From NCBI GenBank assembly GCA_963842945.1, contig CAWJIM010000018.1:1-64000 (forward strand): 64,000 nucleotides of DNA. Direction: 5' to 3'. The notes under the pieces were generated by a model. That model was not told the origin of the DNA. It saw only the letters and a program-made list of their open reading frames with translations, and ran no database searches. Numbering within the stretch: position 1 is the first letter of the stretch; every line of letters begins with the position of its first letter. The position numbers and the translations under genes are program-made. Below are positions 19,937 through 48,895 of this stretch, piece by piece. This DNA comes from an uncultured Gemmatimonadales bacterium (GTDB lineage: Bacteria; Gemmatimonadota; Gemmatimonadetes; Gemmatimonadales; GWC2-71-9).

Positions 19937-20510
19937 TCAAGCGTCGGCGCCGAGGGTCGCGAGCACGGCCTCGGCGACGACCTTGAGGGGCCGGCCCGAG
20001 ACCTGGCTCGCCTTTCGTAGCCGCGCGAAAGCCTCCTCCTCGGACAGGTTCTCCTTCTCCATCAGGAGCCCCTTCGCCCGCTCGATCACCTTGCGCGCGG
20101 CGAGCGCCTCCGAGAGCGAGTCCGCCTCCTCGCGGAGCGCGGTCAGCTCGTCGTGCCGTGCGCGGGCCGCATGGATCGCGGGCAGGAGGTCCTGCTCGCG
20201 AAACGGCTTGACGAGGTAGCCGAAGACACCGGCCTCGACCGCGCGAGAGACGAGCTCCTCCTGGCCGTAGGCGGTGAGCATCACGATCGGGATCGGCCGC
20301 TCCTCGAGGATGCGGCGGGCCGCTTCGATGCCGTCCAGGCGAGGCATCTTCACGTCGAGGACCGCCACGTCGGGCTCCTCGCGAGCGCGCGAGCTCGACC
20401 GCCTCCTCGCCGTCGCGCGCCTCGGCGCAGACCTCGAACCCCGCCCGTTCGAGCAGGGCCCGGAGGTCGAGCCTGATGATCGTCTCGTCCTCGGCGATCA
20501 GGACTCTCAC
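19937..20510 (-). CDS. pdtaR: Receiver-ANTAR response regulator (PdtaR/EutV-like); frameshift near 20380
   Basis: Receiver motifs IAEDE, LDVKMP, LTA and YLVKP; ANTAR motif RKVIERAKGLLM...SEEEAFARLRKAS. Confidence 0.9.
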
Positions 20511-20933
20511 ACGCGGAACTCTACGAAGGAATCTCCGAGGTGAGGCTCTCGGCGAGCATGAACGGGTTGCCGTCGGGGTCGTAGAACATGCAGAGCTTGA
20601 CCATGCCCTCGATCTCGTAGGTGTCGCCGTCGAACCGCACGCCGTGCGACTCCATGTGCTCCGGGCCGCGTCGATGTCCAGACGCCGAAGGTCGGGGTCG
20701 TGCCGCCCGGCTTGACCTCCTCGACCTGGCCGAGCCCGATCGCACGGCTTCGATGGCCGTCGCCAGCTCGCACCAGCCGTACTCGTCGATCATGTAGACG
20801 GCTCGAAGCCGAGCACGTCCCCGTACCACGCGATCGAGCGCTCGAGGTCGGACACGTTGACCGAGAGACGATGTTCTCGTCTTCTCGAACGGCGTGTTCG
20901 TCGCCACTGGGCTGCCTGGACCTGCTCGCTCAT
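20507..20933 (-). CDS. VOC/glyoxalase family protein; multiple indels
   Basis: Fragments VNVSDLERSIAWYGDVLGF and FYDPDGNPFMLAE; GGAGG ribosome-binding site. Confidence 0.75.
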
Positions 20934-20993
20934 CGCGACTCCTCCTCCGATGGCGGTTCTGTCTTGTCCTGTTTTTATACTAAGCATACTTCT

Positions 20994-21518
20994 ATGTCAA
21001 TCGCGCTCTCTTCCACCACCGCTGGGCCGCGCCGATCCTCGCGGAGCTGCACCGCCAGCGGGGAAGCCGCTTCGTCACGCTCCTCGAACACTCGGCCTCG
21101 GGCGGGAATCGCTGCGCCGCACGCTCGCGGCCCTGATCGACGCGGGGCTCGTATGACGAAACCCCGGCTACGGCCACCCACTGCGCCCGGAGTACGTGCT
21201 CACCAGGGCGGGACGGCCGTCGCACCGGCGTGCCTGCCGCTTGTCGCAGCGCTGCGCCGCGGCGACTCGACGACGTCGGCCTGAAGAAGTGGTCGATGCC
21301 CGCGGTGCTCGCCTGGCCGACGGCGAGTGCCGCTACTCGGAGCTGCGCAAGCGGCTCCCGGGGTCTCGCCGAGGGCGCTTACGCTCGCGCTCAAGGATCT
21401 CGGGCTGCCGGCCTCGTCGAGCGGCGCGTCACCCGCGACTACCCGCCCGCCACGGGCTACCGCCTGACCGCCAGAAGCTCGCCGGCTCGCAGCCCTCGCG
21501 AGTCGCGTCGCCGGCTGA
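20994..21518 (+). CDS. HxlR-like winged-helix regulator, probably tandem domains; heavily frameshifted
   Basis: Reconstructed fragments HHRWAAPILAEL, GYGHPLRPEYVLT, KKWSMP, RYSELRKRLPG and VERRVTRDYPPATGYRLT. Confidence 0.6.
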
Positions 21519-21531
21519 GCTCGCGCCAGGT

Positions 21532-21845
21532 TCATCGGCCAGCGTTCCAGGCGCTGTCCGCCAGGTCATGACGTCCACGGCCATCCGGCCTGCTCGGACG
21601 GACGAGGTCGGACTCGGCGAGCCGCCGCGTCTCTTCGCAGATCCGTGCGGTAGAGGCAGAAGCCGCGCATGGTCTCGTCCGCCTGCTCCGAGAACGGCCC
21701 GGCCAGGACGAGGACTCCTCGCTCGTCCATGGCTCCGAGGTGTGCCAGGTGCTGCGCCTGAAGGACCTCTAGCTCGTCGTCGGAGAACTCGAGCGCACGT
21801 GGGCCGCGTCGGAGCGAGAACGAAGCTGTAGCTCTCGAGCTCCAA
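21532..21845 (-). CDS. YciI-family protein; frameshifted; end approximate
   Basis: Fragments QAQHLAHL, LVLAGPF, MRGFCLY and SVRAGRMAVDVMTW. Confidence 0.7.
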
Positions 21846-23256
21846 CTAGGGCGGGAAGACCACCTCGGCCCGAAGGCCGTCGCCTTCGAGCGAAGGTCGA
21901 GCTCGCCGCCGAGCTCGTCGCGGACGAGCGCCCGCACGATCGAGAGGCCGGTGCCCGCTCTCGCCGCGCGATCCCGCTGCCGTCGTCGGCGATCGCGAGC
22001 ACGACCTCGTCGTCCCGCTGCGTGAGCTCGACCCGGATGCGGTCGCCGCCGTGCTCGAGCGCGTTCTGCAGCAGCTCGCTGAAGACGAGCGCCAGGGCGG
22101 TCGCCTTGTCGCCGGCGAGCGAGACCGAGCTCGAGCGCGGTCTCGACCGTACTTCTCGGCGCCCAGCCCCTGGACGAGCATCGAGCGCAGCCGGTCGAGC
22201 AGCTCGTGCGAGGTCGACCTCCTCGTCGCCGCTGCTCGGTGAGCACCTCGTGGACGGCGGCGATCGCGAGGATGCGGTTGACCGAGTCCTCGAGCGCCCG
22301 CCGCGGCTCGACGCCGTTCGCGCGCGCCTGCAGGCGCAGCAGCGAGGCGACCGTCTGGAGGTTGTTCTTGACGCGGTGGTGGATCTCCTGGGCCAGGACG
22401 CCGCGCATGACGGCCCGGCCGTGCTCGAGCGCCACCGCCGCGTGGTGCGCGATCGACGCCGAGCAGCGCGCGGTCCTCGTCGGTGAAGGGCGTGTCGCGG
22501 TCGCAGACGAGCTCGCCGATCACGCGCCGCTTCCAGCGCAGCGGCAGCCGCACCGCGTACGCGCCGGCGCGCCCCTCGGGCCAGGCGATCTTGCCGTCCT
22601 CGAGCACGAGCGCCGCGCCGGTCGCGCCGACCGCGTCCATCGTCGTCTTCACGATCGCCTCGAGCGACTCCTCGAGGTAGAGCGACTCCGAGACCGCCTC
22701 GGAGATCTTGGCGAGCGCCTCGAGCTCGCCGACCCGGCGCTGCGCCTGCGCATAGAGCTGCGCATGCTCGATCGATCTGCGCGACCTGGGCGGCGATCGC
22801 GAGCAGCAGGTCGATCTCGCCCGGCGAGAACTCCCGCGGCGTCGCGCGTGCGCACGTTGAGCGCGCCCTCGAGCTTGTCCCGCGGCGACGATCGGCACGG
22901 CCAGGATCGACTCGTACTCGTCCTCGCGGAGGTTCGCGAACGCCTTGAAGCGCGGGTCGAGATGCGCCTGCGACGGGATCATGATCGGCGCGAGCTCGGC
23001 GGCGGCCGTGCCCGTGATCCCCTCGCCCGGCCGCATCCGCGGGCGGCGGGTCATCTCCTCGACCCGCGTCCCGTGCGTCGCCCGCAGGACGAGCTCGCCG
23101 GCCGGGCGTCGTAGAGGTAGACGAAGCACGCGTCGGCGTCGAGCGCCTCCGCGACCCCGCGGGCCACGAGGTCGAGCACCTCCTCGAGGTCGAGCGAGGA
23201 GTTGACCGCCGCGATCGTCTCGGTCAGCAGGCGCAGATGGCGCCGGACGCGTCCAT
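21846..23256 (-). CDS. pdtaS: Cytoplasmic GAF-domain histidine kinase (PdtaS/HisKA_2 type); many frameshifts
   Basis: H-box QEIHHRVKNNLQTVASLLRLQAR; ELLQNALEH, IADDGSG and GTGLSIV; GAF motifs GEGITG and SILAVP; TACAAT 5 nt before the ATG. Confidence 0.85.
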
Positions 23257-23382
23257 TACCGATTGTAGGAAGCCGAGCAGATCGTGCTGGCACCGTCGAG
23301 ATAGCGACCGCGGACTCCGGATGCTTAACAAATCTTTACGTCCGCCGACTTTTCCTCAACACGGCCCTCGTAGGTTCTCGTC

Positions 23383-23648
23383 GTGAACCTCGAGCTGACC
23401 TATCCGACGCGCGGCTACCTCGTCGCCGACACAGCGGCCGGATCGTCGGCAAGGTCGAGTGCCCGATGTACGGCCGCGAGCAGGACGTCCCGGACGCGCT
23501 CGCCGTGCGCTCCGGCTTCCTCTCCCGGCGCCGCCGGCTCGTGCCGGCAGAGGCGATCGTCGAGATCGACGACCGCAGCCGCGTGATCGGCCTCGGCGTC
23601 GAGCGCGAGGCGATCCGCGCGTTTCTTTGGGACGGCTTCCCTGCGTAA
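23383..23648 (+). CDS. Small PRC-barrel-like protein; frameshift near 23435
   Basis: GRIVGKVE...ALAVRSGFLSRRRRLVPAEAIVEID pattern. Confidence 0.55.
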
Positions 23649-23770
23649 CGACTACGAGCTGCCCGAAGAGCAGCTCGCGGTCGGCCGTCAGCGGTCTCTG
23701 CCGCTCCGCCAGTCGGCAAGGACCGGTGAGGCATTCGATTGTCCTACTTGCGCTAGAGAACGCGATCCGC

Positions 23771-25143
23771 CTAAGTACCGCCAGGTAGCGCTCGTGCTCC
23801 CAGTCGGTGAGCTGAACCCGGTACTCGTCCCACTCCTTGCGCTTGAGCTCGACGTAGCGGTCGAAGATGTGCGGGCCGAGCGCCTTGCGGGCGAGCTCGG
23901 ACTCCGCCAGCTGCGTCGATCGCCTCGCCGAGCGTCTCCGGGAGCGAGACGATCCCGCGCTCCTTCCGCTGCTCCGGCGGTCAGGTGGTAGAGGTTCGTC
24001 TCCATCGGCTCGGGCAGCTCGTAGCCCTGCTCGATCCCCTCGAGCCCCGCGTGCAGCAGCGACGCGAAGGTGAGGTACGGGTTGCAGGCGGGGTCGGGAC
24101 AGCGGATCTCGGCGCGCGTCGCCTGCTCCGAGCCCGGCTTGTAGAGCGGGATCCGGATCAGCGCCGAGCGGTTCCGCTGCGACCACGCGACGTAGACCGG
24201 CGCCTCGTAGCCCGGCACGAGCCGCTTGTAGGAGTTGACCCACTGGGCGAAGATCGCCGAGATCTCGCGCGCGTGGCGGAGCTGCCCGGCGATGAACGCC
24301 TTGCCGACGTCGGAGAGGTGCCACTGGTCGTCGGCGTCGAAGAAGCTGTTGCGCCCGTCGGTGAAGAGCGACTGGTGCGTGTGCATGCCCGAGCCGTTCT
24401 CGCCGAAGATCGGCTTCGGCATGAAGGTCGCGTGGAAGCCGGCCTTCTTGGCGATCTCCTTGACGATCAGCCGGTAGGTGAGCGTGTGGTCGGCCATCTC
24501 GAGCGCCGGCGCGAACTCGCATGTCGATCTCGTGCTGCGACGGGCCCGACCTCGTGGTGGACGTACTCGATCGGGATGCCCATCTGCTCGAGCGCCGCGG
24601 ACGGTCTCCTGGCGCAGCTCGCTCGCGGCGTCCAGCGTCGTCATCGCGAAGTAGCCGCCCTCGTCGAGCGTCTCGGTGCCCTTGTCGTCCTTGAACAGGA
24701 AGTACTCGAGCTCGGGGCCGACGTTGAACGTGTCGAAGCCCATCGACTGCATCCGGTCGAGCGCGCGGCGTAGGACGTAGCGCGGGTCGCCCTCGTACGG
24801 CTTGCCGTCGGGCGTGACGACGTCGCAGATCATCCGGCCGACCTTCGTCTCGCCTTCCTTCCACGGCATCATCTGGTAGGTGCCGGGATCGGGGATCGCG
24901 ACCATGTCCGACTCCTCGATCGCGTTGAAGCCGGTGATCGACGAGCCGTCGAAGCCCATCCCGTCGTCGAGCGCGCCGTCGATCTCGCTCGGGCGTGACC
25001 GCGAAGCTCTTCAGGTGCCCCTCGAGGTCGGTGAACCAGAGGAGCAGGAACTCGACCCCGTCCGCCTTGATCTTCTCCAGCGCGTCCTTGCGCGCCTCCT
25101 CGCTCGACGTCGCTCTGTTCTTCGACTCGACCTGCTCTGGCAC
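23771..25143 (-). CDS. glnA: Glutamine synthetase type I (GlnA2/GSI-alpha-like); frameshifts
   Basis: Motifs FTDLEGHLK, FDGSSI, GPELEYF, ATFMPKP, NGSGMHTHQS, NSYKRLVPGYEAP and NRSALIRIP. Confidence 0.93.
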
Positions 25144-25167
25144 GAAAAACCTCCTCGCTAGAAATGC

Positions 25168-25250
25168 AAAAAGCCCCGGGCGAGAAGCGCCCGAGGCCTC
25201 GTCGCCTCTACGACGAGATCAGGCTACCACGGCTCACCGCGACCTGTCCA
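25168..25250 (-). promoter_or_regulatory. glnA promoter and leader with an ANTAR-like hairpin overlapping an intrinsic terminator
   Basis: On the minus strand: TGGACA-18-TAGCCT promoter; hairpin GAGGC-GACGAG-GCCTC (25208-25193); terminator GCCTCGGGCG-cttct-CGCCCGGGGC-TTTTT (25197-25168); GAGGAGG ribosome-binding site follows. Confidence 0.75.
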
Positions 25251-25384
25251 GCGAACTACTCGCTCGGAGCGTGAAATCCCGCTGCTGACGCCGCGGCCCG
25301 CGACAGAAGCTCATGAACCGACGGCCAGACGCCGAAGCTCGGTCTGGAGAACGGTCCAGTCAAGGTGCGATGGAGCGAGACCTC

Positions 25385-26061
25385 ATGAGGCAAGTGCTTC
25401 AACGATTCGTGCGTCTGTCCCGCCGATGATCGTCGCGATGCGTCGCGCTGTTCGTGGCGTTGTCGGGCGACCGCGATGTGCAGACGTCTTCCGGCGCTGA
25501 TCACCGGCGCCCAGATCAAGAACAGCTCGATCAGCAGGCCTCGACGTCGAGAACAGGTCGCTCAGGCCGAAGGATCGTCGAGGGTTCGGTGCGGGGCCCG
25601 CGCAGGTCGCTCGCGGACTCCAGGGACTGCAGGGCGTCCAGGGCGATCCAGGGCGTCCAGGGCGTCGAGGGCCGCGGGGCCGCTCGGGGTAGCACGCAGC
25701 TTTTGCGCCGGGTGCAGGCGGCACGGAAGCACCTCAGCCGGCGCGTCGACAGGACGCCCGTCGCAGGTCAGAGCCGTCGGACGCGACTGACCTCGTCAAG
25801 GGCGAGGGATGCCGCAGCCGACCGGGACCCTGCTTCGGCGCCCTCGGTTTCCAGGTCGCGCAACGTGGTGGTCTCGACTCGACAACGCCGACGCTGCCGC
25901 TGCCGACCGCAGACCTGATCGCGAGCGTCGCGATGCGACCGCGGTGAGGACCTGGGAGATCTCGTGCCCGCGACTCACAATCAGGCGCGGGTGCGAATCG
26001 TCGACGGAAGCACGGCCGCCGCACAGGACGGGCAGTTCTTCATCTGGATCGAGCAGCGTGA
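25385..26061 (+). pseudogene. Secreted collagen-like (Gly-X-Y) protein; reading frame badly disrupted, probably by sequencing error
   Basis: Signal-peptide-like start; fragment LITGAQIKNSSI; CAGGGCGTC repeats at 25620-25670 encode QGVQG-type triplets. Confidence 0.55.
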
Positions 26062-26109
26062 TCCGGATAAGGTGCTGTCGTCTGACGATCCGCTCGCTGC
26101 GATAGCGGT

Positions 26110-27371
26110 TCACGCCTCTGCACGGGCAGCTCCTCGAGCTCGGGCTCGCGGCCGCCGTGGCGGATCGCGCGCGGCCGTAGAGGGCGAGCGCCGGCGCGAT
26201 CGCAAGAGCGCCCGACGGCAAGCGCCGTCGCGGATGCCCCACACGTTGCCGATCACGCCGAGCACGGGCCCGCCGCCGGCCTGGCCGATCGCGTCCGCCT
26301 GGCCCGCTGATCGAGATCACCGTCGCCCGCACGCTCGAATCGGTGATCTGCTCGTTCAGCCAGATCGTGTAGAGCGGCCCGGCGAGGTTGCGCGCCAGGA
26401 AGACGCCGAGCATCGCGACGATCGCGAGCCAGACGCATCCCGGTCAGCGCGAACACGAGCATCGCCGACCATCTGGATGGCCGTGAGACCGAAGAGCCAG
26501 CTGGTCACGACCTTCCGCCCGCCGTGCTCGAAGCGCTTGATGAGCCGGCCCGTCGCGAAGAACCCGAACACCATCCCGACGAGCCAGAAGATCCCGAACC
26601 AGACGACCGGGTCCAGGCTGCCGACTGCGGGAAGCCCGACGTCGCGCAGGAAGTGCGCCTCCTTCAGGCGGTCGAAGGCCTCGCTGGACATGCCCATGAA
26701 GAAGTCGACCCCGATCAGGAGCAGGATCACCGGAGCGGCCCACGCGTAGCGAGCGCCGCTCGCGGCCGTCGAGCGCAGCTCGGTCAGCGCCGATCCGCGC
26801 TCGTGCCGCGGCTTGCGCTGGAAGCCGGTCTCGGGCATGCAGCGACGATGCAGAGAACGCCGCACAGCGCCGTGGCCGCGCCGCCGGCGATCACGCCGGC
26901 ACGGAGGGAGACGAGGCCGATCGCGACCTGCACGATCAGCCCGAGAACGGAGCCGACGTACGCGATACGCGAGCCCTTGCAGGAAGACGCGACCGGACTT
27001 TCTCGACTCCCACCTCGTCGGTGATCCAGGCCTGCTCGGCGCCGCTCGTGAACGTGTACGAGAAGCCCCAGAACGCCCAGAGCGCGATGATCAGCCACGG
27101 CTGCCGAGACGACGCCGACGAGCATCCAGGCGAGGCCCATCCCGAGGTAGCCGACGATCAGCGACAGCCGCCGGCTGTATGTGTCGGCGACGACTCCGGT
27201 CGGGACTTCGAACAGGAACACGGCCGCTTCCATCGCCGTTCCCATCAGGATCAGCTGGAGCGGCGAGAGGTCCAGCTCGCTGACGAGGAACACCGCCATC
27301 ACGACCCACGTCGGCACGCGAGAGAGGATCTGGATGACGTAGTAGAGCCGGGTCGCGTCCGCGCGCCTCAT
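26110..27371 (-). CDS. MFS transporter; frameshifts
   Basis: Motifs LFEVPTGVVADTYSRRLS, SGAEQAWITDE and DSSVRATVIS. Confidence 0.85.
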
Positions 27372-28272
27372 GCGAGCCCCTCCAGAGGCAGCGGAGCGCG
27401 ACCATCGTGATCGTGACGTCGCGGTACTCGTAGCCGAGCTGCTCATTGACGCGCCGCATCCCGTCGTTCCCGCGCTGGGTCCACGTGACGACTTCGCGGA
27501 AGCCGTTCTCCGCTGCCCACGCGAGCTCCGCCCGCTTGAGCGCCGGAAGCCAGGCCGCGGCGGCGCCAGTCACGCCGGACAACCGTCAGCCCGTCCTCGG
27601 CGACCCCGGGTTGTCGTGGCGCATCAGACCGGAGAAACCGACGATCTCGCCGTCGGCCAGCGCGACGAACGAGCCCTCGGGGATCGTCGCCTCGTCGCGA
27701 AGCCAGTCCTCGATCGAGACGGCGCGCAGGCGCCTCGAGCGCCATGTCGTGGTAGCCCTCGGACGCGAGCGGGATACGCCTCCCGCAGCAGCGCGGGCCG
27801 CTCCGCGACCGTGACGACCTCGATTCCGTCCGGAAGGGGCGGGGCGCGGCTCGCGCGCCGAGACTGCTTGACCTGCTCGACCTGACGATCGTCTCGCGAA
27901 AGCCGAACCGCTCGGCGAACGGCTGCGAGCCCTCCTCCTCCACGTGCGCCGCGATCTTGTCGACTCGAGCGTCGAGGCATGCGCGACGAGCTCGCGCAGC
28001 AGCGCCGTGCCTACCCCGCGGCGGCGCGCGTCCGGAAGGACGCGGACCTTGACGGAGAAGCGGTCGCCGATGTCCGAGCGGTCGGCGAGCCCGCTGCCGA
28101 CGACCTCCCCGTCGAGCTCGGCGACGAGGAGGCGCCGCTCCGGCCTGTCGGCCAGCTGCGCACGGAAGAGCTCTGACCGACCCGCCCGACTCGTTCGGGA
28201 AGACAGCGCGCGGCGAATGCGGATGAAGGCCTCGAGGTCGGCGTCGCTCTCGGCTCGGCGAACCTCGATCAC
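27368..28272 (-). CDS. Tandem-domain GNAT acetyltransferase; frameshifts
   Basis: Motifs VLPDARRRGVGTALL, VRRDWRRRGLA and NDGMRRVNEQLGY. Confidence 0.8.
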
Positions 28273-29107
28273 TATCCCGACCTCTTCAGCTTCCCGTGCT
28301 GCTTCGCATACCGCTCGCCGCGGCGGAAGACCTCGAGCCCGAGCGGAATCGAGACGATGCCGATGATGATCAGCGGCCAGATGTTCGGCCACATGTCCGT
28401 GACCCCGGCGCCGTCGATGATCGCGTCCCGGATGCCGTCGAGCGCATACGTGGCCGGCGAGATGACCGAGAGCCACTGCATCCACTCCGGCAGGACGCTG
28501 ACCGGGTAGTAGACGCCGGAGACGACGAGCAGGAGCCCCTGCGCGACGAAGCCGAGCTGCGTGCCCTTCTCGGGCGAGATCAGCGGCAGGACCGCGGTCA
28601 TCATCCCGATCCCGATGAACGAGATCGAGGCGACGAGGAGCACGACCAGGGCCGCGACGAAGTTGGCGCCCGCGAGGCTCGAGGTCGAAGAAGAGCGCGA
28701 CGACGCCGAAGAGGAGCACCGCGCGAATGACGCCGTAGACGATCGCGAAGGCGCCCATCCCGAACAGGTGGATCGGGCGCGAGAGCGGCGCCATGAACGT
28801 GTACTCGATCGTCCCCTCCCAGCGCTCCCACGCGACCGTCTCCGTGAGGATCTCGAAGATGATCCCGAGGTAGGCCCAGACGACCGCCCCGACGAGCAGG
28901 ATCGTCGTCACGCGGTCGACGTCGATCGTGCCGCCGCCGGCCTCGATGCCCTTCGGCGATGAAGACGATCGTCAGCGTGTTCGCGACGGTCCAGAGGAAG
29001 AACGCGACGTCCCACCAGATGTAGCGCTTGACGAGGTAGACGTTCCGCTCGAAGACGCCGGCGAGGCCGATCAGCTCGTGGCGGAGGGTTGCGGCAGCTC
29101 CGGGCAT
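28272..29107 (-). CDS. ABC-2 type exporter permease; frameshifts
   Basis: Motifs WERWEGTIEYTFMAP, SGVYYPVSVLPEW and SPATYALDGIR. Confidence 0.88.
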
Positions 29108-29915
29108 CAGTCTTCGTCCTCCTCTCGCTTCTCGTCCTCGAATGCCTTGCCGGTCGCCGCGAAGAACGCCTCCTCGAGGGTCTCCGCGCCGTAGCGGCGC
29201 TTGAGGTCCTCGACCGGCTCGAGCGCAGAGCAGCTTGCCGTCGTCGAGGATGCCGACGCGATCTGCGAGCGCCTCGGCCTCGTCGAGGTCGTGCGTGCAG
29301 AGCAGGATCGTCGCGTCGTGGATCTCGCGAATCTCGCGGATGAAATCCTGGACCTCGAGCTTCGAGCGCGGGTCGAGGCCGGTCGTCGGCTCGTCGAGGA
29401 GCAGCAGGACCGGCTGCGGTCAGCAGCGCCCGCGCGAGCGCGACCTTCTGCTGCATCCCGCGCGAGAGCTCCTCCATCGCCTCGCCGCGGCGATCGGCCG
29501 GGAAGCCGACCTTCTCAAGGATCCGCGGGATCTCGTCGCGCGTGTCGCCGGGCGTCATCCCGTAGAAACGCGCGGCATACGAGAGGTTCTCGGTCGACGA
29601 CATCTTCTTGAAGAACGACGCCTCGACCGACACGCGGTTGACGAGCCGGCGCACGGCGCGCGTCTCCTTGAAGACGTCGTGCCCGAAGACGTGCGCGCTG
29701 CCGCCGTCGTGCAGCAGCAGCGTCGAGAGCAGGCGGACGAGCGTCGACTTGCCCGAGCCGTTCTGGCCGAGGATGGCGACGCATTCGCCGCGAGCGATCT
29801 CGAAGCTGACTCCGCGGAGTGCCTCCACGCGCTCGCGGCGCCGGCGCAGGCCGGAGCGCTTACCGTCGCTACGGCGGAACTCCTTGCGCAAGTTTTGGAC
29901 TTCGACTGCGGGCAC
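29107..29915 (-). CDS. ABC exporter ATP-binding subunit; frameshifts
   Basis: Motifs GQNGSGKST, LSRGMQQK, LLLDEPTTGLD and LEEAFF. Confidence 0.9.
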
Positions 29916-29996
29916 GTGTTGCTCCAGACTCGACTTGCAGGGACACCGAACCGGCGCACCGACCCGCTTGAAGGGTGGCGCGCGCAGAAACCGGAA

Positions 29997-30053
29997 TCAG
30001 CCGAGGCGCAACATCGCGGGGATCAGCGTAGCTACGACGACGGCCGAGGGCAA
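29997..30053 (-). promoter_or_regulatory. Promoter TTGCCC-17-TACGCT followed by a 5-codon uORF (MLRLG) upstream of the ABC exporter
   Basis: -35 at 30053-30048, -10 at 30030-30025; ATG TTG CGC CTC GGC TGA at 30014-29997. Confidence 0.5.
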
Positions 30054-30063
30054 GACCGCGGGG

Positions 30064-31641
30064 TCATCTGCGGCCCATAGTGAGGTTCACGCGCGCGCCC
30101 TGGCGAAGGCGCACGCCCGCCCGCGGACTCTGGCGCACGACCCGGCGCCAGCTCTTTCGGGACGAGTGCACGACGCGAACTCTGCCGACCGAGCAGTGCG
30201 CGCGCTGAATGCGTCTCCGGGCGATTCCGTACCGCAGATGGATCACGCGGGGCACGCGGCAACGAACCCGTGAGGCCGGCGGTGGCGGCGCGAGCGGCCC
30301 AAGGTCCACCCCGAGCGCGATCACGTGGTCGGATGTGCCGTCGGAGCCCTTGCCCGCCACGACGAGCCGACCGGCGGCAGCGGGATCCGAGCCCGGTTGG
30401 ATGACGACGCCCGTGCCCCACAGTCTCGTCGCGAGCGGGTCGTACGTCGCCTTCCCGCCCATGCCGAACGAGTTGTCCAGCGTCCCGTCTTCGTTGTAGC
30501 GCGAGGCCGCAAACTGGTCACCGGGCGGGAGATCGGAGAGCGCGAGGCCGCCCGAGACGACCTTGCCATCAGCTTGCACGGCGACCCCGTGAGCCACCGC
30601 GAACACGCGTCCGAACGACGTCGTCACAGTGCCCGAGCCTCCGAATGCATGGTCGAGGACTCCGGAGCTCAGGTAGCGAGCGACGCGGAAGGCCCCGGAG
30701 CCGTCACTGCCGGCCACGACGATCTTGTTGCCGGGGGCAGGCGCGAGCGCCCAGGCCCTCTGACTGTAGGAACCGCGGCCGGCGACGATGCCGTCAGAGC
30801 CGAAGGTCGGGTCGAGCCGACCCGTCGGCGTGTATCGGACGACAGCGAAGGCGTTCGCGCGGGGATCCGACATGTCAGCGGTGCCGGCCACGACGATTCG
30901 GGCCCCGATGAGGATGACGGCGGCCGCTTGGTCACGCGAGGAACCGCCCACGCTCGTGTTGACGACGCCGCCGTTTCCGAACGTCGGATCGAGGTCTCCG
31001 TTCGACCTGAGGCGCAGCACGGTGAAGCCATCGCCGCCGGGTCCTACGGCCAGGACCTTCCCGTCGGGCTGAACCGCGACTCCCTCGGCTCCGCCGAAGG
31101 CTCCTACGTGGACGGTCTTGACGCCGTCTCCGGAAAAGGTCGGGTCGAGCGCGCCCGAGGGCGTGTAGCGCACGAACGCGAAGTCCGTTCCTCCGGGAAC
31201 CACGGTCAGGCCGGCCACGACGACCCTCCCGTCGGGACCGACCGCGACTGCCGCTGCGAAATCAGAAGCGGCACCGCCTGAGTCGATCGGCGTACGAACG
31301 ACGCCAGCGCTTCCGAATCCGCGGTCGAGATTCCCGTCCGGAGTCAGGCGAGCGACGAAGAAGTCGGCGTCCGAAGCCTGCGCCCGGTAGGGAGCGGGCG
31401 GTGGCGGAGGCGGGGGCGCCTGGTCGTCGATCGTCCCGGCGAGCACGACCTTGCCGTCGGCCTGCACAGCCGCGGCAGACGCTGCCGACTGGAGCGCAGG
31501 CGAAAGGACGACACGGCCGCCGGTGCCGAACGCCGGGTCGAGGTCGCCCGCCGTCGTCGGCGCCGCACCGGCGAAGCCGCAAAGCGCGACGAGAACGCCG
31601 ACCGCAGCGACGCACACGCCGAGCGGCCTGCGCGCTGACAT
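30064..31641 (-). CDS. Secreted delta-60-repeat (beta-propeller) protein with a C-terminal PASTA-like domain
   Basis: Repeated G-x-LD-x-x-FG-x-x-G and AVQxDGK motifs; C-terminal CRVPRVI...VVRQSPRAG; signal peptide. Confidence 0.85.
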   Translation of the reverse strand: MSARRPLGVCVAAVGVLVALCGFAGAAPTTAGDLDPAFGTGGRVVLSPALQSAASAAAVQADGKVVLAGTIDDQAPPPPPPPAPYRAQASDADFFVARLTPDGNLDRGFGSAGVVRTPIDSGGAASDFAAAVAVGPDGRVVVAGLTVVPGGTDFAFVRYTPSGALDPTFSGDGVKTVHVGAFGGAEGVAVQPDGKVLAVGPGGDGFTVLRLRSNGDLDPTFGNGGVVNTSVGGSSRDQAAAVILIGARIVVAGTADMSDPRANAFAVVRYTPTGRLDPTFGSDGIVAGRGSYSQRAWALAPAPGNKIVVAGSDGSGAFRVARYLSSGVLDHAFGGSGTVTTSFGRVFAVAHGVAVQADGKVVSGGLALSDLPPGDQFAASRYNEDGTLDNSFGMGGKATYDPLATRLWGTGVVIQPGSDPAAAGRLVVAGKGSDGTSDHVIALGVDLGPLAPPPPASRVRCRVPRVIHLRYGIARRRIQRAHCSVGRVRVVHSSRKSWRRVVRQSPRAGVRLRQGARVNLTMGRR

Positions 31642-31711
31642 GACCAAAGCGTAGTCCGCTCTGAGCGGATCGCCTAGCGCTTCGTCCGGCCGATTTCGTA
31701 GATTGTCGCCA

Positions 31712-31779
31712 AGTGCTCGCCGCCGAAGGCGGGCGCTGAGGCAATGGGGCCTCAGGACTTCGAGTCCTGGGCCCTTTTT
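31712..31779 (+). promoter_or_regulatory. Dual-hairpin ANTAR-target RNA overlapping an intrinsic terminator in the glnII leader
   Basis: P1 AGTGCTCGCC-GCCGAA-GGCGGGCGCT; P2 GAGGC-AATGGG-GCCTC; terminator GGGCC.CAGGACT-TCG-AGTCCTG.GGCCC-TTTTT; TAGATT -10 at 31699-31704. Confidence 0.85.
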
Positions 31780-31806
31780 CTTTGGTCCGAGAAAAGGAGG
31801 GGGCAC

Positions 31807-32850
31807 GTGAAGTACAAGCTCGAGTACATCTGGCTGGACGGCTACGAGCCGGTTCCGAACCTACGCAGTAAGACGAAGATCGTCGACTTCGACGCAGAGC
31901 CGACAGTCGAACAATTGCCGCTCTGGAACTTCGACGGCAGCTCCACCCGCCAGGCGGACGGCTCGAGTTCGGACTGCTTCCTCCAGCCAGTCGCGCTCTT
32001 CCCTGACCCCGCCCGCAACCACGCCCGCCTAGTCATGTGCGAGGTGCTGCTGCCCGACGGGACGCCGCATCCGTCGAACAGCCGCGCCGCGATCGCCGAC
32101 GACCCCGACGCCTGGTTCGGCTTCGAGCAGGAGTACTTTCTGTACAAGGACGGCGCGCCCCTCGGGTTCCCGAAGGAGGGCTTCCCCGCCCCGCAGGGCG
32201 AGTACTACACGGGCGTCGGCTTCAAGAACGTCGGCGACGTCGCGCGGCAGATCGTGGACGAGCACATCGACCTCTGCGTCGAGGCCGGCATCGCGATCGA
32301 GGGCGTGAACGCAGAGGTCGCGAAGGGCCAATGGGAGTTCCAGATTTTCGGCAAAGGCGCCCGGCACGCGGCCGACGAGCTCTGGATCGCGCGCTACCTG
32401 ATGCTCCGCCTCTGCGAGCGCTTCGGCGTCGACGTCAACTTCCATCCGAAGCCGCTCGGTGCGGACGTCGACTGGAACGGCTCGGGGTTGCACACCAACT
32501 TCTCGACGAAGCACATGCGCGAGATCGGCGGCGAGGAATACTTCACGGCGCTGATGAGCGCGTTCTCGGAGGCGCGAGACGAGCACATCGCGTGCTATGG
32601 GCCTGAGAACCACCTGCGCCTGACCGGCCTCCACGAGACAGCAGCGATCGACGAGTTCACGCACGGCGTCGCCGACCGCGGCGCGTCAGTCCGCATCCCG
32701 CACAGCTTCGTCAACGACGGCCATCGCGGCTATCTCGAGGATCGGCGGCCGAATTCGATGGCCGACCCGTACCGCATCACCGGCCGCATCGTGCAGACGA
32801 TTCGGTCGGTTGCAGCGCACGCGCTGATCGAGGATGCGTTCGCCGCGTAG
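31807..32850 (+). CDS. glnII: Glutamine synthetase type II
   Basis: Motifs KLEYIWLDG, LRSKTK, WNFDGSST, FGFEQEY, NAEVAKGQWEFQ, DWNGSGLHTNFST and LEDRRPNS; AGGAGG ribosome-binding site. Confidence 0.95.
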   Translation: MKYKLEYIWLDGYEPVPNLRSKTKIVDFDAEPTVEQLPLWNFDGSSTRQADGSSSDCFLQPVALFPDPARNHARLVMCEVLLPDGTPHPSNSRAAIADDPDAWFGFEQEYFLYKDGAPLGFPKEGFPAPQGEYYTGVGFKNVGDVARQIVDEHIDLCVEAGIAIEGVNAEVAKGQWEFQIFGKGARHAADELWIARYLMLRLCERFGVDVNFHPKPLGADVDWNGSGLHTNFSTKHMREIGGEEYFTALMSAFSEARDEHIACYGPENHLRLTGLHETAAIDEFTHGVADRGASVRIPHSFVNDGHRGYLEDRRPNSMADPYRITGRIVQTIRSVAAHALIEDAFAA

Positions 32851-33335
32851 TGCTCGAGGTGCGCGAGCTTCGGGGAGACGACTGGCCTGCCGTGCGAGAG
32901 ATCTTCGAGCAGGGGATCGCAGGCAAGAACGCCACGTTCGAGACCGAGGCTCCCTCCTGGCACGTATGGAACCGCTCGCAGCTCGACGGCCACCGCTACG
33001 TGGCCGTCGAGGGCGGGCGAGTAGTCGGCTGGGTCGCGGCGCACCCGGTCTCGTCACGACCTTGCTACGCGGGCGTCGTCGAGCACAGCGTCTACGTCCA
33101 CGACGACTGGCAGGGGAAGGGAACCGGCCGCGCGCTCCTCGAGCGGCTCTTCGAGAGCACCGAGGCGGCCGGGATCTGGACGATCCAGACGGGGATCTTC
33201 CCGGAGAACGAGGCCAGCCTCGCGCTGCACGTGAAGTGCGGGTTCCGCGTCGTCGGGACGCAGGAACGGCTCGGACAGCTCGACGGCGTCTGGCGTGACG
33301 TCGTCGTCCTCGAACGACGGAGCAAGGAGATCTGA
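32850..33335 (+). CDS. GNAT N-acetyltransferase of the phosphinothricin/methionine-sulfoximine (Pat/YncA/ArsN-like) family
   Basis: Motifs ATFETEAP, EHSVYV, QGKGTGRALL and IFPENEASLALHVKCGFRVVG. Confidence 0.88.
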   Translation: MLEVRELRGDDWPAVREIFEQGIAGKNATFETEAPSWHVWNRSQLDGHRYVAVEGGRVVGWVAAHPVSSRPCYAGVVEHSVYVHDDWQGKGTGRALLERLFESTEAAGIWTIQTGIFPENEASLALHVKCGFRVVGTQERLGQLDGVWRDVVVLERRSKEI

Positions 33336-33336
33336 C

Positions 33337-33687
33337 ATGACCAAGGTGGAGGCAGTGGTCACCCGCGAGCGAGTCGAGATCGTGATCGATGCGGTCGAGA
33401 CCGAGACCGGGCATGTGGGCGTGACGGTGGTCGAGGCGATCGGCCACGGGCGCCAGAGGGGGGTCACGCATGAGTATCGCGGCCGCGTCTTCGAATCGCG
33501 CTTCCTCCCGAAGGCCCTCCTGACGTTCATCGTCGAGGACTCCCTCGCGACGGCCGTGGTCGCCGCGGTCACCGATGCGGCCCGCTCCGGACACGAGTCC
33601 GGTGACGGCATCGTCTGGACGACGCGCATCGAGAACGTGATGCACAACCGCACCGGCCTCTCGCTGGGCGAGGTGGAGGTCGCATGA
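33337..33687 (+). CDS. glnK: P-II family nitrogen regulator (divergent)
   Basis: Motifs KVEAVV, GHGRQRG...YRG...FLPK and GDG; immediately upstream of amtB. Confidence 0.85.
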   Translation: MTKVEAVVTRERVEIVIDAVETETGHVGVTVVEAIGHGRQRGVTHEYRGRVFESRFLPKALLTFIVEDSLATAVVAAVTDAARSGHESGDGIVWTTRIENVMHNRTGLSLGEVEVA

Positions 33688-35084
33688 GGAACGCCGACCT
33701 CCTCATCGCCGTCAACACGGTCTGGGTCGTGCTCGCGGCGGTGCTCGTGATGTTCATGCAGGCCGGGTTCGCGTTCCTCGAGGCGGGCCTGACGCGCATG
33801 AAGAACGCCGCGCACATCGCGGGCAAGAACGTCCTCATCTTCGGCGTCTGCTCGATCGTCTACTGGGCAGTCGGGTTCGGGCTCGCCTTCGGCGACGGCA
33901 ACTCGGTGATCGGAACGAGCGGCTTCTTCCCGTCGACGGACGAGCTCCTGTCGATCGGTGCTGCCCCGTTCAGCTTCTTCACCACGATCCCCGCTGCAGC
34001 GGGCTACCTGTTCGAGGTCGTGTTCGCCGGTGTCGCCCTCGCAATCGTCTGGGGCGCGATGGCCGAGCGGGCGAAGCTGTGGGTCTACATCGTCTTCGGC
34101 GCCTTCTTCACCGTCCTCTACTCGGTGGTCTCGCACTGGGTCTGGCACGCGGGCGGATGGCTCTTCTCGATCGGCATGCAGGACTTCGCAGGGTCGACGG
34201 TCGTCCACTACCAGGGCGCGCTGGCTGCACTGGCCGGCGCGCTCTTGCTCGGGCCTCGCATCGGCAAGTTCGGCCGCGACGGACGCGCGAACCCGATCCC
34301 CGGCCACAACATGCCGTACGCCGTCCTCGGGACGCTCATCCTCTGGTTCGGCTGGTTCGGGTTCAACCCCGGCTCGACGCTGGGCGTCGTCACGGGCGAG
34401 AACATCGGCTACTTCGGCTACGTGGCCCTGATCACGAACGTCGCGGCAGCCGCGGGAGCGCTCGGCGGGATCGGCGTGGCCTGGCTTGTCCTGCGCAAGC
34501 CGGACGTCTCGATGATGCTGAACGGCGTCATCGCGGCGCTGGTCGCCATCACGGCAGCCTCAGGCTTCGTTGCGCCGTGGGCGGGGGTCGTGATCGGCGC
34601 CGTCGCCGGCGCGATCGCAGTCGTGGGCGTCCTCGGGGTCGAGCGGCTTGGGATCGACGACCCGATCGGCGCAGTCGCCGTCCACGGGATGGCCGGAGTG
34701 TGGGGAACGCTCGCCACCGGCCTCTTCGCGGTGCCCTCGCTCGCGTCCAATCTCGCGACCGGGACGGGCGGGCTCGTCTACACCGGGAGCTTCCACCAGC
34801 TCGGCGTGCAGGCGGTCGGGCTCGTCGCTGTCGGAGCTTTCACCTTCACGGCTTGCTTCGGCTGCCTTTGGGCGTTGAAGGCGCTTTGGGGGATCCGGGT
34901 CGAGGAGCACGTCGAGACCGCGGGCCTGGACGTCGCCGAGCACGGAATGTGGGGCTACCCCGAGTTCTACATCCCGGTCCCGGGTGGTTATGGAACCGAG
35001 TCGCACTCACACTTGATCGGCCGGCAGCACAAGCACGAGACCGAAGCGGAGCTCACGCCCGAGCCCGCGAAGGAAGCCGCCTAG
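33684..35084 (+). CDS. amtB: Ammonium transporter
   Basis: Motifs FMQAGFAFLEAG, GAMAER, DFAGSTVVH, LWFGWFGFN and DDPIGAVAVHG. Confidence 0.96.
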   Translation: MRNADLLIAVNTVWVVLAAVLVMFMQAGFAFLEAGLTRMKNAAHIAGKNVLIFGVCSIVYWAVGFGLAFGDGNSVIGTSGFFPSTDELLSIGAAPFSFFTTIPAAAGYLFEVVFAGVALAIVWGAMAERAKLWVYIVFGAFFTVLYSVVSHWVWHAGGWLFSIGMQDFAGSTVVHYQGALAALAGALLLGPRIGKFGRDGRANPIPGHNMPYAVLGTLILWFGWFGFNPGSTLGVVTGENIGYFGYVALITNVAAAAGALGGIGVAWLVLRKPDVSMMLNGVIAALVAITAASGFVAPWAGVVIGAVAGAIAVVGVLGVERLGIDDPIGAVAVHGMAGVWGTLATGLFAVPSLASNLATGTGGLVYTGSFHQLGVQAVGLVAVGAFTFTACFGCLWALKALWGIRVEEHVETAGLDVAEHGMWGYPEFYIPVPGGYGTESHSHLIGRQHKHETEAELTPEPAKEAA

Positions 35085-42769: not shown

Positions 42770-43540
42770 GTGACCGTGCTTCGAAACATCGAGCAGAAGA
42801 TCGAGGCGCTTTTCGAGGGCGTCTTCGGCCGCGCGTTCCGTACCAACGTCCAGCCCGTCGAGCTGGCGCGGAAGCTCGCGAAGGAGATGGACGACCACCG
42901 CATGGTCTCGGTCTCGCGCGTGTATGCGCCCAACGAGTACTCGGTCTACCTCTCCCCCGGCGACCGCGAGCAGTTCGACAGCTACGAGGAATCGCTCCTG
43001 AGCGAGCTGCAGGAGTACCTCGCCGAGCACGCGCGCCGCGAGTCGTACGTCCTTCTCAGCTCGCCGAAGGTGCTCCTGAACACCGACTCCGACCTCGAGG
43101 TCGGCGAGTTCGGGATCGCGACGCGCATGGTGCAGCCCGAGCCCGGCCAGGGGCCTTCCGAGCCCTTGCCGGAGGCTCCTCCCGGCGCAACGATGGTCTA
43201 CAAGCCCCAGGGCCCACCGACCGAGGCGGCCACCCCCGGCGAGCTGGGCGTCGTCCCGGAGGTCGTCACGCTCGACGAAAACGGGACCAAGCACGAGATC
43301 GACAAGGTCAGCGTCGTCATCGGCCGCTCGAAGGAGTGCGACATCCGCCTCGCCGACCCCAACGTCTCCAGACGGCACGCCGAGCTGCGGCAAGAGGGAA
43401 CCGCATACTGGATCCTCGATCTCGGCTCGACGAACGGGCTGACGGTCAACGGTCGCCGCCAGCAGCGGGCGAAGCTCGAGAATCGGGACCGGATCACCAT
43501 CGGATCGACCGACCTGGTCTTTCACAGAACGGGCTCATGA
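42770..43540 (+). CDS. fhaA: DUF3662 + FHA domain protein
   Basis: VQPVELARKLAKEMD...APNEY; FHA motifs IGRS, VSRRHA and DLGSTNG. Confidence 0.92.
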   Translation: MTVLRNIEQKIEALFEGVFGRAFRTNVQPVELARKLAKEMDDHRMVSVSRVYAPNEYSVYLSPGDREQFDSYEESLLSELQEYLAEHARRESYVLLSSPKVLLNTDSDLEVGEFGIATRMVQPEPGQGPSEPLPEAPPGATMVYKPQGPPTEAATPGELGVVPEVVTLDENGTKHEIDKVSVVIGRSKECDIRLADPNVSRRHAELRQEGTAYWILDLGSTNGLTVNGRRQQRAKLENRDRITIGSTDLVFHRTGS

Positions 43541-44025
43541 TCGCGGCCTCAGTCGACGTCGAGGGCGCGCTCCTCATCCTCAAGGCCTGCTTCCTCTTCC
43601 TTCTCTATGTCTTCATCTGGCGCATAGTTCGTACCGCCAGCCGTGATCTCCGCCTCCCACAAGAGAGCTTCGTGCTCGGCCCACAGCAAGCCGCAGCCGT
43701 CGGCCTGCAGCCCGAGCCCCAGGTGAACATGGGCCGCCTCGTCGTCCTGAAGAGCACCGCCATCGACGAGAACACCGAGTTCGTGCTCGACTCGGCCGGC
43801 ATCTCGATCGGACGGGGTGGGCCGAACGAGGTCCGGCTCGACGGCGACGACTTCGCATCCGTGCAGCACGCACGCGTGGAGCCGCGGCGCGACGGCGTGT
43901 GGATCGAGGACGTCGGCTCGACGAACGGCACATACGTCAACGGCGTGCGGCTCTCTCGGGCGCGCAAGCTCACGGCCGGCGACCTCGTCCGCGTCGGCGA
44001 GACCGACCTGAGGTTCGAGACATGA
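43537..44025 (+). CDS. fhaB: Membrane-anchored FHA protein
   Basis: N-terminal TM helix; motifs IGR, ASVQHA and DVGSTNGT. Confidence 0.9.
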   Translation: MIAASVDVEGALLILKACFLFLLYVFIWRIVRTASRDLRLPQESFVLGPQQAAAVGLQPEPQVNMGRLVVLKSTAIDENTEFVLDSAGISIGRGGPNEVRLDGDDFASVQHARVEPRRDGVWIEDVGSTNGTYVNGVRLSRARKLTAGDLVRVGETDLRFET

Positions 44026-45032
44026 GCGTGTTCCTCGGCCGAAGCACGGGCCTCTCCCACCCGGGACGCAAGCGGCGCCGCAACGAGGACGCCTGGGTCT
44101 GCCAGCCGCCACTCTTTGCAGTGGCTGACGGCATGGGCGGCGCCCGCGGCGGCGAGATCGCGTCCCGCCTGGCCGCGACCGCACTTGGCGAGAGCGTCGA
44201 CGGAAGCGGCGAGGAGAGGGTGGTCGCGCTCATCCAGAAGGCGAACCAGCACGTCTATGAGCGTGCCCGTGACGATGCAGAGGCCTCCGGGATGGGCACG
44301 ACGATCACCGTCGCGCTCGTCGAGGACGGCGTCGTCGCGATCGGTCACGTGGGCGACTCGCGCGGTTATCTGATCCGCGACCGAAAGGTCGAGCAGCTGA
44401 CCGAGGACCACTCGCTCGTCGCCGAGCTCGTCCGCAGCGGGCGGCTCTCGCCGGAGGAAGCCGATACGCACCCGCAACGGTCGGTCATCACCCGCGCCCT
44501 CGGCACCGATCCCGACGTCGACGTCGACTCCTTCTCGATCGAGGCGAAGGCGGGCGACGTCTTTCTCATCTGCTCGGACGGGCTGACCTCGATGGTCGGA
44601 GACGACACGATCCTCGGCATCGTCGAGCAGAGCCGGGACAACTTCGACGCGATCGCGAAGGAGCTCATCGGAGCGGCGAACGAGAGCGGAGGCGAGGACA
44701 ACATCACCGTCGTCTTCTTCGAGATGACCGACAAGGCGCCCGAGCCCGTGGCCGAGACGAAGACCATGCCGGCAGTCCAGCCGCCCTCCGCCACGGATGC
44801 AGACGAGGACACACTCTCCGGCCTCGAGGGCGTGCCGACCGTGCAGACGATGGTCGTCCCGCCCGACCAGGTGCACTCGGTCGCAGTGGACGGAACGCCA
44901 CCAGCGGCGCCGCCCGTCCCCGAGGAGCCGAAGGAGCGGTTCAGCGTCCGGGCCGCTCGTCTCATCGTCGCGCTCGCGGTCGTCGCCGCCATGGCTCTCC
45001 TCGTGTACTGGCTTCTCGGCCAGAGCAGATGA
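44022..45032 (+). CDS. pstP: PP2C-family Ser/Thr phosphatase
   Basis: Motifs RRRNED, VADGMGG, HVGDSR, CSDGL and GGEDNIT; C-terminal TM helix. Confidence 0.93.
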   Translation: MSVFLGRSTGLSHPGRKRRRNEDAWVCQPPLFAVADGMGGARGGEIASRLAATALGESVDGSGEERVVALIQKANQHVYERARDDAEASGMGTTITVALVEDGVVAIGHVGDSRGYLIRDRKVEQLTEDHSLVAELVRSGRLSPEEADTHPQRSVITRALGTDPDVDVDSFSIEAKAGDVFLICSDGLTSMVGDDTILGIVEQSRDNFDAIAKELIGAANESGGEDNITVVFFEMTDKAPEPVAETKTMPAVQPPSATDADEDTLSGLEGVPTVQTMVVPPDQVHSVAVDGTPPAAPPVPEEPKERFSVRAARLIVALAVVAAMALLVYWLLGQSR

Positions 45033-47778: not shown

Positions 47779-47802
47779 GCGCGAACGTACCCTGATTAGG
47801 AC

Positions 47803-48895
47803 ATGGCCTACGTCGACACCCTGATCAACACGCTCTTCGACGGGCGCTACCGGATCGTCCGGAAGCTCGGCTCGGGCGGGATGGCGGACGTCTACCTGGC
47901 CGAGGACGAGGAGCTCGGGCGCCGGGTCGCGGTCAAGATCCTGAACGACCGGCATGCGAACGACGAGTCGTTCGTCGAGCGCTTCCGCAGGGAGGCCAAG
48001 AACGCCGCGGGCCTCTCGCACCCGAACATCGTGTCGATCTACGACCGCGGCGAGGCCGAGGGCACGTACTACATCGCGATGGAGTACCTCGACGGGCGGA
48101 GCCTGAAGGAGCTCGTCGTCGCCCGGGGGCCGCTGCCGACCGGCGATGCGATCCAGTTCACCCGCCAGGTGCTCGGCGCACTTCGCTTCGCCCATCGCAA
48201 GGGCGTCGTCCACCGCGACATCAAGCCGCACAACGTCATGGCCGACGCGGACGGGCGCCTGAAGGTGACCGACTTCGGCATCGCGCGGGCGGGCGTGAGC
48301 CAGATGACCGAGGCGGGCTCGATCATCGGGACGGCGCAGTACCTCTCGCCCGAGCAGGCCCGGGGCGCCGCGGTCGATCAGCGCTCGGACCTGTACTCCG
48401 TCGGGATCCTGCTCTACGAGATGCTGACCGGGACCGTGCCCTTCACGGGCGACTCGCCGGTCGAGATCGCGATGAAGCACCTGTCCGACACGCCGCGGCC
48501 GCCATCGCTCCAGCGCCCCGAGATCCCGCCCGACCTCGACATGGTCGTACTCCGCGCGCTGGCGAAGAACCCCGACGACCGCTTCCAGACCGCCGAGGAG
48601 ATGGACGCAGAGCTCGACCGGGTCGCTCAGGGCGTCGGCGTGACGGCCGAGACGGCGGATGCGGCCACTGCGGTCCTCTCGGGCACGGCGCTTTCGAACG
48701 CCCCGACTGCGGTCGTGCCCCCGCGCCGCCCGCCAGCGGCAGCGCGCCCCTCGTATCGCTACGCCGACCCTCCGGCCCGCCGGCGACCCATCTGGCCGTG
48801 GCTGCTCGCATTGCTCCTCGTCGTGCTCGCCGGCGTCGCCGGCGTCTACGCGTACGGGCAGATCCAGGATTCGCTCGGCAGCTCGGCGACCACGT
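47803..48895 (+). CDS. pknB: Ser/Thr kinase PknB, truncated just after the TM helix (no PASTA domains)
   Basis: Motifs LGSGGMADVY, HRDIKPHN, DFGIAR and GTAQYLSPEQA; the frame runs into unrelated sequence after QIQDSLGSSAT. Confidence 0.92.

Follow-up and report, generated by a model that had tools for sequence, protein, structure and literature searches.

The window analysed here comprises the first 64,000 nucleotides (nt) of a contig, C18, from an assembly filed as an uncultured Gemmatimonadales bacterium, and it carries two glutamine synthetase genes, glnA and glnII, together with the genes for a receiver-ANTAR response regulator and a soluble kinase. Comparison with related genomes suggests that, throughout the order Gaiellales, terminators in the leaders of nitrogen-assimilation genes are likely overridden by the adjacent receiver-ANTAR protein. 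Leaders with two hexaloop hairpins (P1 and P2) are very probably ANTAR antitermination switches, and there is a good, if smaller, probability that such control also embraces the glnA leader of the family Gaiellaceae, which has a single hairpin. The P1 hairpin of the glnII leader and the single-hairpin form of the Gaiellaceae glnA leader, both predicted from sequence, are new. Literature searches, for which subscription papers were mostly outside reach, returned no description of the single-hairpin case or of ANTAR control in Gaiellales. The widest form of the proposal holds that the Gaiellales swapped GlnR for a glutamine-inhibited kinase with an EI-Ntr-type GAF domain and an ANTAR antiterminator, and that Gaiellaceae glnA is a single-hexaloop attenuator antiterminated without a recruitment hairpin; as a whole it is rather unlikely to hold.

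Leader hairpins and terminators

A preliminary description of the window had placed the regulator gene and a GAF/HisKA_2 kinase gene downstream of glnA, and a GAGGC-N6-GCCTC hairpin with G at loop position 4 (G4) in the leaders of both glnA and the glnII-GNAT-PII-amtB unit, with the 3′ arm of each hairpin within an intrinsic terminator. All of these elements were found in their places (Table 1), and in both leaders that arm is the 5′ arm of the terminator. One such hairpin per leader stood, but the upstream P1 of the glnII leader, which also has G4, had been overlooked; the glnA leader has no P1. Folding indicates that each leader can form either the terminator or the G4-hexaloop hairpin P2, the two being mutually exclusive through their common use of the terminator 5′ arm. 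The terminator is the stable end state, with a median of 7.3-7.8 kcal/mol below the antiterminated form, and in the nascent RNA the hexaloop hairpin folds with a probability near 1 without protein. The ribosome-binding site lies 3′ of the U-tract in both window leaders, unlike PdtaR-type targets, which overlap it.

The bare motif is in modest excess over chance in the window (three matches were reached in 2 of 100 shuffles). The whole bin (4.3 Mb) holds 18 matches, and a U-tract follows only the two in the leaders. The orthologs consisted of the best 80 related loci, 74 of which include the kinase and 53 the start of glnA, and intact orthologs were substituted for the frameshifted genes of the window. 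The conservation that the preliminary description had proposed to look for was present: 49 of 53 orthologous, unselected glnA leaders keep the motif, and they likewise retain the loop length, A2, and G4, with loop positions 5-6 and the 5′ flank variable. In an alignment of 63 leaders, terminator pairing was maintained in 95.7% of cells, with 66 double-changed cells compared with 20 in shuffles. The P1 stem covaries at 5 of 5 outer pairs, and its closing C-G pair is present in 44 of 46.

No Rfam family matched the leaders at the gathering score. A 5′ pseudoknot or helix in the glnA leader was rejected, being no better than shuffles (45 of 200 as low), as was the apical terminator loop as a second hexaloop, since its length and sequence vary.

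The regulator and its targets

The best PDB matches of the intact regulator ortholog were Rv1626 (E 8e-52) and EutV. Its REC and ANTAR domains score above the Pfam cut-offs, and its phospho-acceptor Asp falls on the receiver Asp motif when aligned with EutV and Rv1626. Most positions that contact G4 in EutV are conserved, as R, K, E, and an aromatic residue; among the RNA-contact residues of EutV, R142, K143, K149, E160, and R168 are the same, with K147R and Y164F.

The covariance-model scan of Thermoleophilia proposed in the preliminary description separated genomes with and without the regulator. Of 121 genomes, 22 have it (E <= 1e-70), and 21 of these contain an RNA match of at least 35 bits, compared with none of the 99 others, the best score of which was 29.2 bits. 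Among 101 genomes of the order, the regulator was found in 93, the RNA in 79, and both in 77. Seven of the 16 regulator-only genomes were inspected; three have divergent dual glnA leaders and four lack glnA in the stretch taken. Weak RNA matches outside Gaiellales (9 of 14 inspected) showed the arrangement in no case. In five Gaiellaceae genomes the model returned one or two strong sites per genome, among 150 candidates scored in each.

Classification of 102 sites, two of which precede no reference gene and were discarded as false positives, left 100 that lie before glnA (63), GSI-beta (14), PII-amtB (9), glnII (8), GNAT (2), a second amt (2), and receiver paralogs (2). Additional sites stand before genes for amt, stand-alone receivers, an EamA transporter, a transglutaminase-like protein, and a Bmp-family binding protein; behind several, no gene was identified. 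The linked regulator was the sole ANTAR protein found in two of the five genomes tested, and a second was present in the other three. A draw of 201 genomes across the phylum yielded the kinase once, in the Gaiellaceae centre itself (among eight candidates scored per genome). A TAnnnT or -10 hexamer stands just before the start codon of the kinase gene in 50 of 67 orthologs (6-8 nt) and of the regulator gene in 33 of 67, so both genes are likely independent of read-through from glnA.

Several features of the target genes were observed along the way. Stand-alone receivers follow the same leader type at L151:4499-5630 and at L154, L199, L205, and L207, in one case with a second receiver-ANTAR gene behind; they could be phosphate sinks giving negative feedback. 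The co-regulated GNAT protein is nearest to ArsN1 and to phosphinothricin acetyltransferases, below cut-off, and may shield glutamine synthetase against inhibitors that are amino-acid analogues. In most of the 14 PII copies aligned, the T-loop reads HEYRGRVFESRF. Its Phe occupies what we take to be the place of the uridylylated Tyr51 of E. coli PII, and the protein may therefore be unmodified.

The genes behind these leaders are of the same kind as those that we take to be GlnR targets (glnA, glnII, and amtB-glnK); GlnR is a DNA-binding regulator, whereas control is predicted here at the RNA level. The preliminary description had asked whether glnR is present, and the Gaiellales genomes searched yielded no GlnR ortholog. 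In a phylum draw that served as positive control, 11 of 61 genomes had the GlnR receiver family (PF21695) at 92-153 bits. In Thermoleophilia its scores did not exceed 31 bits (6 of 121 genomes), and in five Gaiellaceae genomes they stayed below cut-off. A real GlnR query against five genomes gave only matches of 30-41% in which the N-terminus was absent. Two unpublished genomes enter the tally of the phylum draw, one of them also that of the 201-genome draw, and none of the claims depends on them.

The kinase and its signal

In the proposed mechanism, the neighbouring kinase would phosphorylate the regulator, likely under nitrogen shortage. The phosphorylated dimer, by analogy to EutV and GnfR, would load on P1 and then hold P2, and with P2 held RNA polymerase would read into glnII or GSI-beta, GNAT, PII, and amtB. 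The signal is the least certain step. The sensor region of the kinase comprises a GAF domain and a small GAF-like fold, followed by HisKA_2 and HATPase_c. No PAS match was found, and none of its 11 PDB matches is named PdtaS. The favoured signal is glutamine, which would inhibit the kinase directly through its EI-Ntr-like GAF domain, a suggestion somewhat less probable than even. Glutamine inhibits EI-Ntr through its GAF domain (PMC4848567, accessible text). PdtaS is described as constitutively active and inhibited by ligands (accessible parts of PMC12132213 and 10.1101/660928), so an inhibitory ligand is a reasonable model for this kinase.

The chance is about even that the switch operates as described and that the kinase senses nitrogen indirectly, through PII or glutamine synthetase, or responds to another ligand, such as 2-oxoglutarate, a redox signal, or a metal. 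Three methods, namely phmmer (E 5e-21), NCBIfam (1.8e-24, versus 5.6e-12 for NifA), and Foldseek against single GAF structures (TM-score 0.90 to 3trc), point to the PtsP/EI-Ntr GAF as the nearest characterised domain to the first kinase GAF, and a lid-loop motif, derived from these same sequences, occurs in 2 of 2 PtsP proteins, 18 of 21 kinases, and 0 of 545 other GAFs. These matches speak for glutamine. Against it, the identity to PtsP is about 30-33%, other GAFs score equally well against the kinase profile, and the GAF group that contains the domain numbers 46,869 representatives. Multi-GAF proteins made up most of what a GAF search of cluster representatives retrieved, and the matches listed in a homolog search were all close relatives. 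In a quick tree, where PtsP is represented by two rows only, the kinase groups with other actinobacterial GAFs, apart from PtsP. The co-regulation of PII fits an indirect signal, and the inhibition of PdtaS by Cu and NO (PMC12132213, accessible text) fits a ligand of another type.

Two classes of leader

The leaders fall into two classes. In the non-glnA leaders, an upstream G4 hexaloop P1 was found in 32 of 37 when at least three pairs were counted, and in 29 of 37 with at least four. It most often ends 12 nt before the GGC of P2, and a TAnnnT hexamer ends 31-40 nt before the hairpin GGC in 35 of 37. The glnII leader of the window, with P1 and P2, is of this dual type. In 62 of 63 glnA leaders, 11-19 nt separate the end of the -10 hexamer (consensus TAGACT) from the hairpin (background 0.5%), and the predicted start therefore leaves 5-13 nt of RNA and no room for P1. 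A P1 of at least four base pairs occurs in 1 of 63, a sister-clade leader. Three-pair loops at the P1 distance are present in 6 of 63. One belongs to a sister-clade leader that is truly dual; the other five are positioned at the predicted start or further upstream. Dual leaders have the features of the structural definition of an ANTAR target except A1, and the Gaiellaceae glnA leader has one hairpin where that definition has two.

In a glnA tree (FastTree; 26 single-leader rows, one a duplicate), all 11 dual leaders group in a single clade (support 99), to which the single and lost leaders are sister (support 100). Outgroup glnA leaders, from genomes in which the regulator ortholog is absent, contained the element in 0 of 9. 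The tree itself gives no direction of change; P1 was presumably lost in Gaiellaceae glnA, because almost every other target is dual. A weaker U-tract marks the single leaders (5.13 versus 6.14 T in 8 nt), and the sister-clade glnA leaders (n = 10) have 6-7 T in 8 nt. A longer capture window in single leaders was considered and rejected (distance to the stem end of 24.5 versus 24 nt).

Most dual-leader promoters have the sequence CGTCCG at a distance of 10 nt before the -10 hexamer (in a set of 35, each base is present in 63-83%), and it is also found in several sister-clade glnA promoters; among 428 other -10-like sites, only 7 have TCCG at that offset. The sequence may serve for control at the DNA level or reflect shared descent. 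In two leaders, L201:1272-1321 (-) and L213:1270-1318 (-), one of which precedes a GNAT gene, a -10-like hexamer lies 7-9 nt before the hairpin, and these are possible independent single-hairpin cases.

With a predicted start so close to the hairpin, the regulator would need to capture P2 of Gaiellaceae glnA directly, without P1. The outcome would be basal expression and a modest induction of the main glutamine synthetase, since the U-tract is weaker. It is improbable, on present evidence, that the dual leaders are ANTAR-switched and that the glnA hairpin is an unregulated, built-in competitor of a leaky terminator which sets a fixed expression level. The weaker U-tract and the folding of the nascent hairpin without protein agree with such a device, as do the requirement of EutV for P1 in vivo and the loss or degradation of the element in four lineages (both detailed below). 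For mere competition, however, the stem would suffice, whereas loop length, A2, and G4 are conserved as well, and the terminator is still favoured, by a median of 7.3 kcal/mol, as in dual leaders.

Direct capture at the single glnA leader and the antitermination reading in general also have to be set against a series of contrary observations. The co-occurrence counts are inflated by kinship and linkage. Four of the 53 glnA leaders (L019, L023, L031, and L070) have lost or degraded the element and retain the regulator. The top three pairs of the P2 stem are invariant across leaders, and covariation is therefore unable to prove that P2 forms. Loop position 1 is G, instead of A, in 52 of 62 glnA hairpins and in 30 of 32 P1 loops; it is A in 28 of 37 dual P2 loops. 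In the regulator, Met172 of EutV is replaced by Gln in 73 of 73 copies, and N173, R175, and R177 are also changed. Met is likewise absent from the corresponding position of 6hmj, which we take to be an RNA-binding protein. Met172 is essential in EutV (PMC8934654, accessible text), and the replacement therefore counts against a simple transfer of the EutV binding mode, whereas A1 of the hexaloop is reported there to make no protein contact. Induction by EutV was abolished by deletion of P1 (Ramesh et al., PMC3369931, accessible text), which speaks against antitermination at a single hairpin.

That the leaders respond to a small riboswitch or to another RNA-binding protein, as the G1 loops and the Met-to-Gln change unlike EutV might suggest, is very improbable, given dual G4 hexaloops over a terminator (the ANTAR architecture), outgroup glnA leaders that lack both element and regulator ortholog, and neither an Rfam family nor a 5′ pseudoknot. 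Antitermination by the linked ANTAR protein, as the preliminary description had proposed, fits the conservation, the covariation of terminator and P1, the co-occurrence with the regulator, the mostly nitrogen-related predicted targets, and the finding of no GlnR ortholog.

Origin and state of the locus

The first ~49 kb of the window are Gaiellaceae DNA inside a chimeric contig. Their GC content and tetranucleotide use are unlike those of the rest of the contig and of the bin, and the composition shifts near 49 kb, where pknB is interrupted (48.9-49 kb): at the junction, ~48900-49000, a Gaiellaceae-like stretch ending in the truncated pknB meets DNA that matches the bulk of the bin. The best 80 matches of the regulator have 82-97% identity and are Gaiellaceae or Gaiellales wherever they are named below class. 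The locus was therefore assigned to Gaiellaceae and the contig regarded as chimeric. Absence tests within this bin consequently carry no meaning. The genome of the window and its kin were dropped as a test set (in each of 36 same-genus genomes, the regulator matched nothing beyond generic receivers), and other genomes were used for testing. Relative to intact orthologs, the regulator gene has one frameshift, the kinase at least five, glnA three, and glnII none; those in the first three genes are most likely assembly errors.

Positions 42770-49038 of the window hold an actinobacterial-type cluster, named from translations, of FHA proteins, a phosphatase, RodA, a penicillin-binding protein, and PknB. 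Two further stretches of the bin, C16 190-250 kb and C19 570-740 kb, are composition outliers that resemble the first ~49 kb of the window.

Table 1. Genes and predicted leader elements of the nitrogen locus (window coordinates)
Feature	Position	Strand	Remarks
Receiver-ANTAR response regulator	19937..20510	-	Pfam REC + ANTAR; frameshift near 20381-20391; 93-97% identity to intact ortholog, in two pieces
Soluble kinase, GAF - small GAF-like fold - HisKA_2 - HATPase_c	21846..23256	-	At least 5 frameshifts
-10-like hexamer, kinase (predicted leaderless promoter)	23262..23267	-	5 nt before kinase start
glnA, type I glutamine synthetase	23771..25143	-	3 frameshifts; 3′ end approximate; ortholog exceeds TIGR00653 cut-off
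U-tract, glnA leader terminator	25162..25172	-	
Terminator stem-loop, glnA leader	25173..25197	-	
Single hexaloop hairpin (P2-equivalent), glnA leader	25193..25208	-	Loop GACGAG, 25198-25203; terminator uses its 3′ arm
Predicted -10 hexamer, glnA promoter	25221..25226	-	14 nt before hairpin GGC; background rate 0.5%
CGTCCG in glnII promoter spacer	31683..31688	+	Conserved; 10 nt before -10 hexamer
Predicted -10 hexamer, glnII operon promoter	31699..31704	+	35 nt before P2 GGC
P1 hexaloop hairpin, glnII leader	31713..31736	+	Loop GCCGAA at 31722-31727
P2 hexaloop hairpin, glnII leader	31738..31753	+	Loop AATGGG; terminator uses its 3′ arm
glnII leader terminator	31747..31783	+	Stem 31747-31774, U-tract from 31775
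glnII-GNAT-PII-amtB unit	31807..35084	+	
glnII-type glutamine synthetase	31807..32850	+	Pfam; best NCBIfam model GlnII, 392 bits versus cut-off 500
GNAT acetyltransferase	32850..33335	+	Nearest ArsN1-type enzymes, below cut-off
PII protein	33337..33687	+	
Ammonium transporter AmtB	33684..35084	+	

Comparison with known systems

If the replacement of GlnR and the single-hexaloop control of glnA are true, one regulator would act on two promoter classes with different dynamic range. The system is also a candidate for the central nitrogen regulator of a soil order that is widespread, mostly uncultured, and without a GlnR ortholog in the genomes searched; its candidate glutamine-sensing kinase is a plausible sensor lead. 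ANTAR control of nitrogen genes has precedents. According to the accessible text of PMC2995071, the GnfR site of Geobacter sulfurreducens, CAGGCAANGGCGCC, precedes terminators before nif and glnK-amtB genes, and nitrogen-linked ANTAR RNAs were predicted in 2012 (PMC3369936, accessible text). Ramesh et al. predicted dual-hexaloop RNAs before PII, ammonium-transporter, and glutamine-synthesis genes (PMC3369931, accessible text). The Geobacter GnfK/GnfR pair is alike in consisting of a kinase and a receiver-ANTAR antiterminator, with glnK-amtB among its targets, and P2 resembles the GnfR site, which overlaps a terminator (PMC2995071). As far as the accessible text goes, GnfK has no sensor domain, is under GnfL/GnfM, and serves nif genes with RpoN promoters, whereas the Gaiellales kinase has GAF sensors, the predicted promoters are sigma-70-like, and glutamine synthetases are among the targets.

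The mycobacterial PdtaS/PdtaR pair (Rv3220c/Rv1626), with which the preliminary description had compared the two proteins, proved a good likeness for the regulator, whose nearest solved relative is Rv1626, and for the kinase only in its catalytic class, both kinases being soluble and of the HisKA_2 type. PdtaS has a GAF/PAS sensor, whereas the Gaiellales kinase has no PAS match. PdtaR targets are subject to translational repression, and few actinobacterial ANTAR RNAs overlap terminators (accessible parts of PMC8164766 and 10.1101/660928); the accessible part of that actinobacterial survey (PMC8164766) has no Gaiella entry. EI-Ntr (PtsP) supplies the best characterised match for the kinase GAF, but here the domain is carried by a histidine kinase, at about 30% identity, and was not a sister of PtsP in the quick tree.

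A structural parallel is drawn with EutW/EutV of Enterococcus faecalis, in which, in the accessible text, a receiver-ANTAR protein likewise acts on P1 and P2 G4 hexaloops with P2 overlapping a terminator. Walshe et al. reported that a EutV dimer binds a single hexaloop; they suggested recruitment as the role of the P1 hairpin and anticipated single sites in cases where transcription by the polymerase imposes no time limit (PMC8934654, accessible text). The conserved single hexaloop over the glnA terminator does not agree with that expectation. The published work, as far as accessible, treats P1 as obligatory for antitermination, and the single-hairpin glnA leader is a testable anomaly. The Gaiellales provide a natural test, since closely related regulators are found with orthologous glnA leaders of both kinds, those of one clade possessing P1 (11 of 11) and those of the other lacking it (62). 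Compared with EutW/EutV, the Gaiellales system would serve nitrogen assimilation and not ethanolamine use, G1 loops are common, Gln stands in place of Met172, and the Gaiellaceae glnA leader lacks P1.

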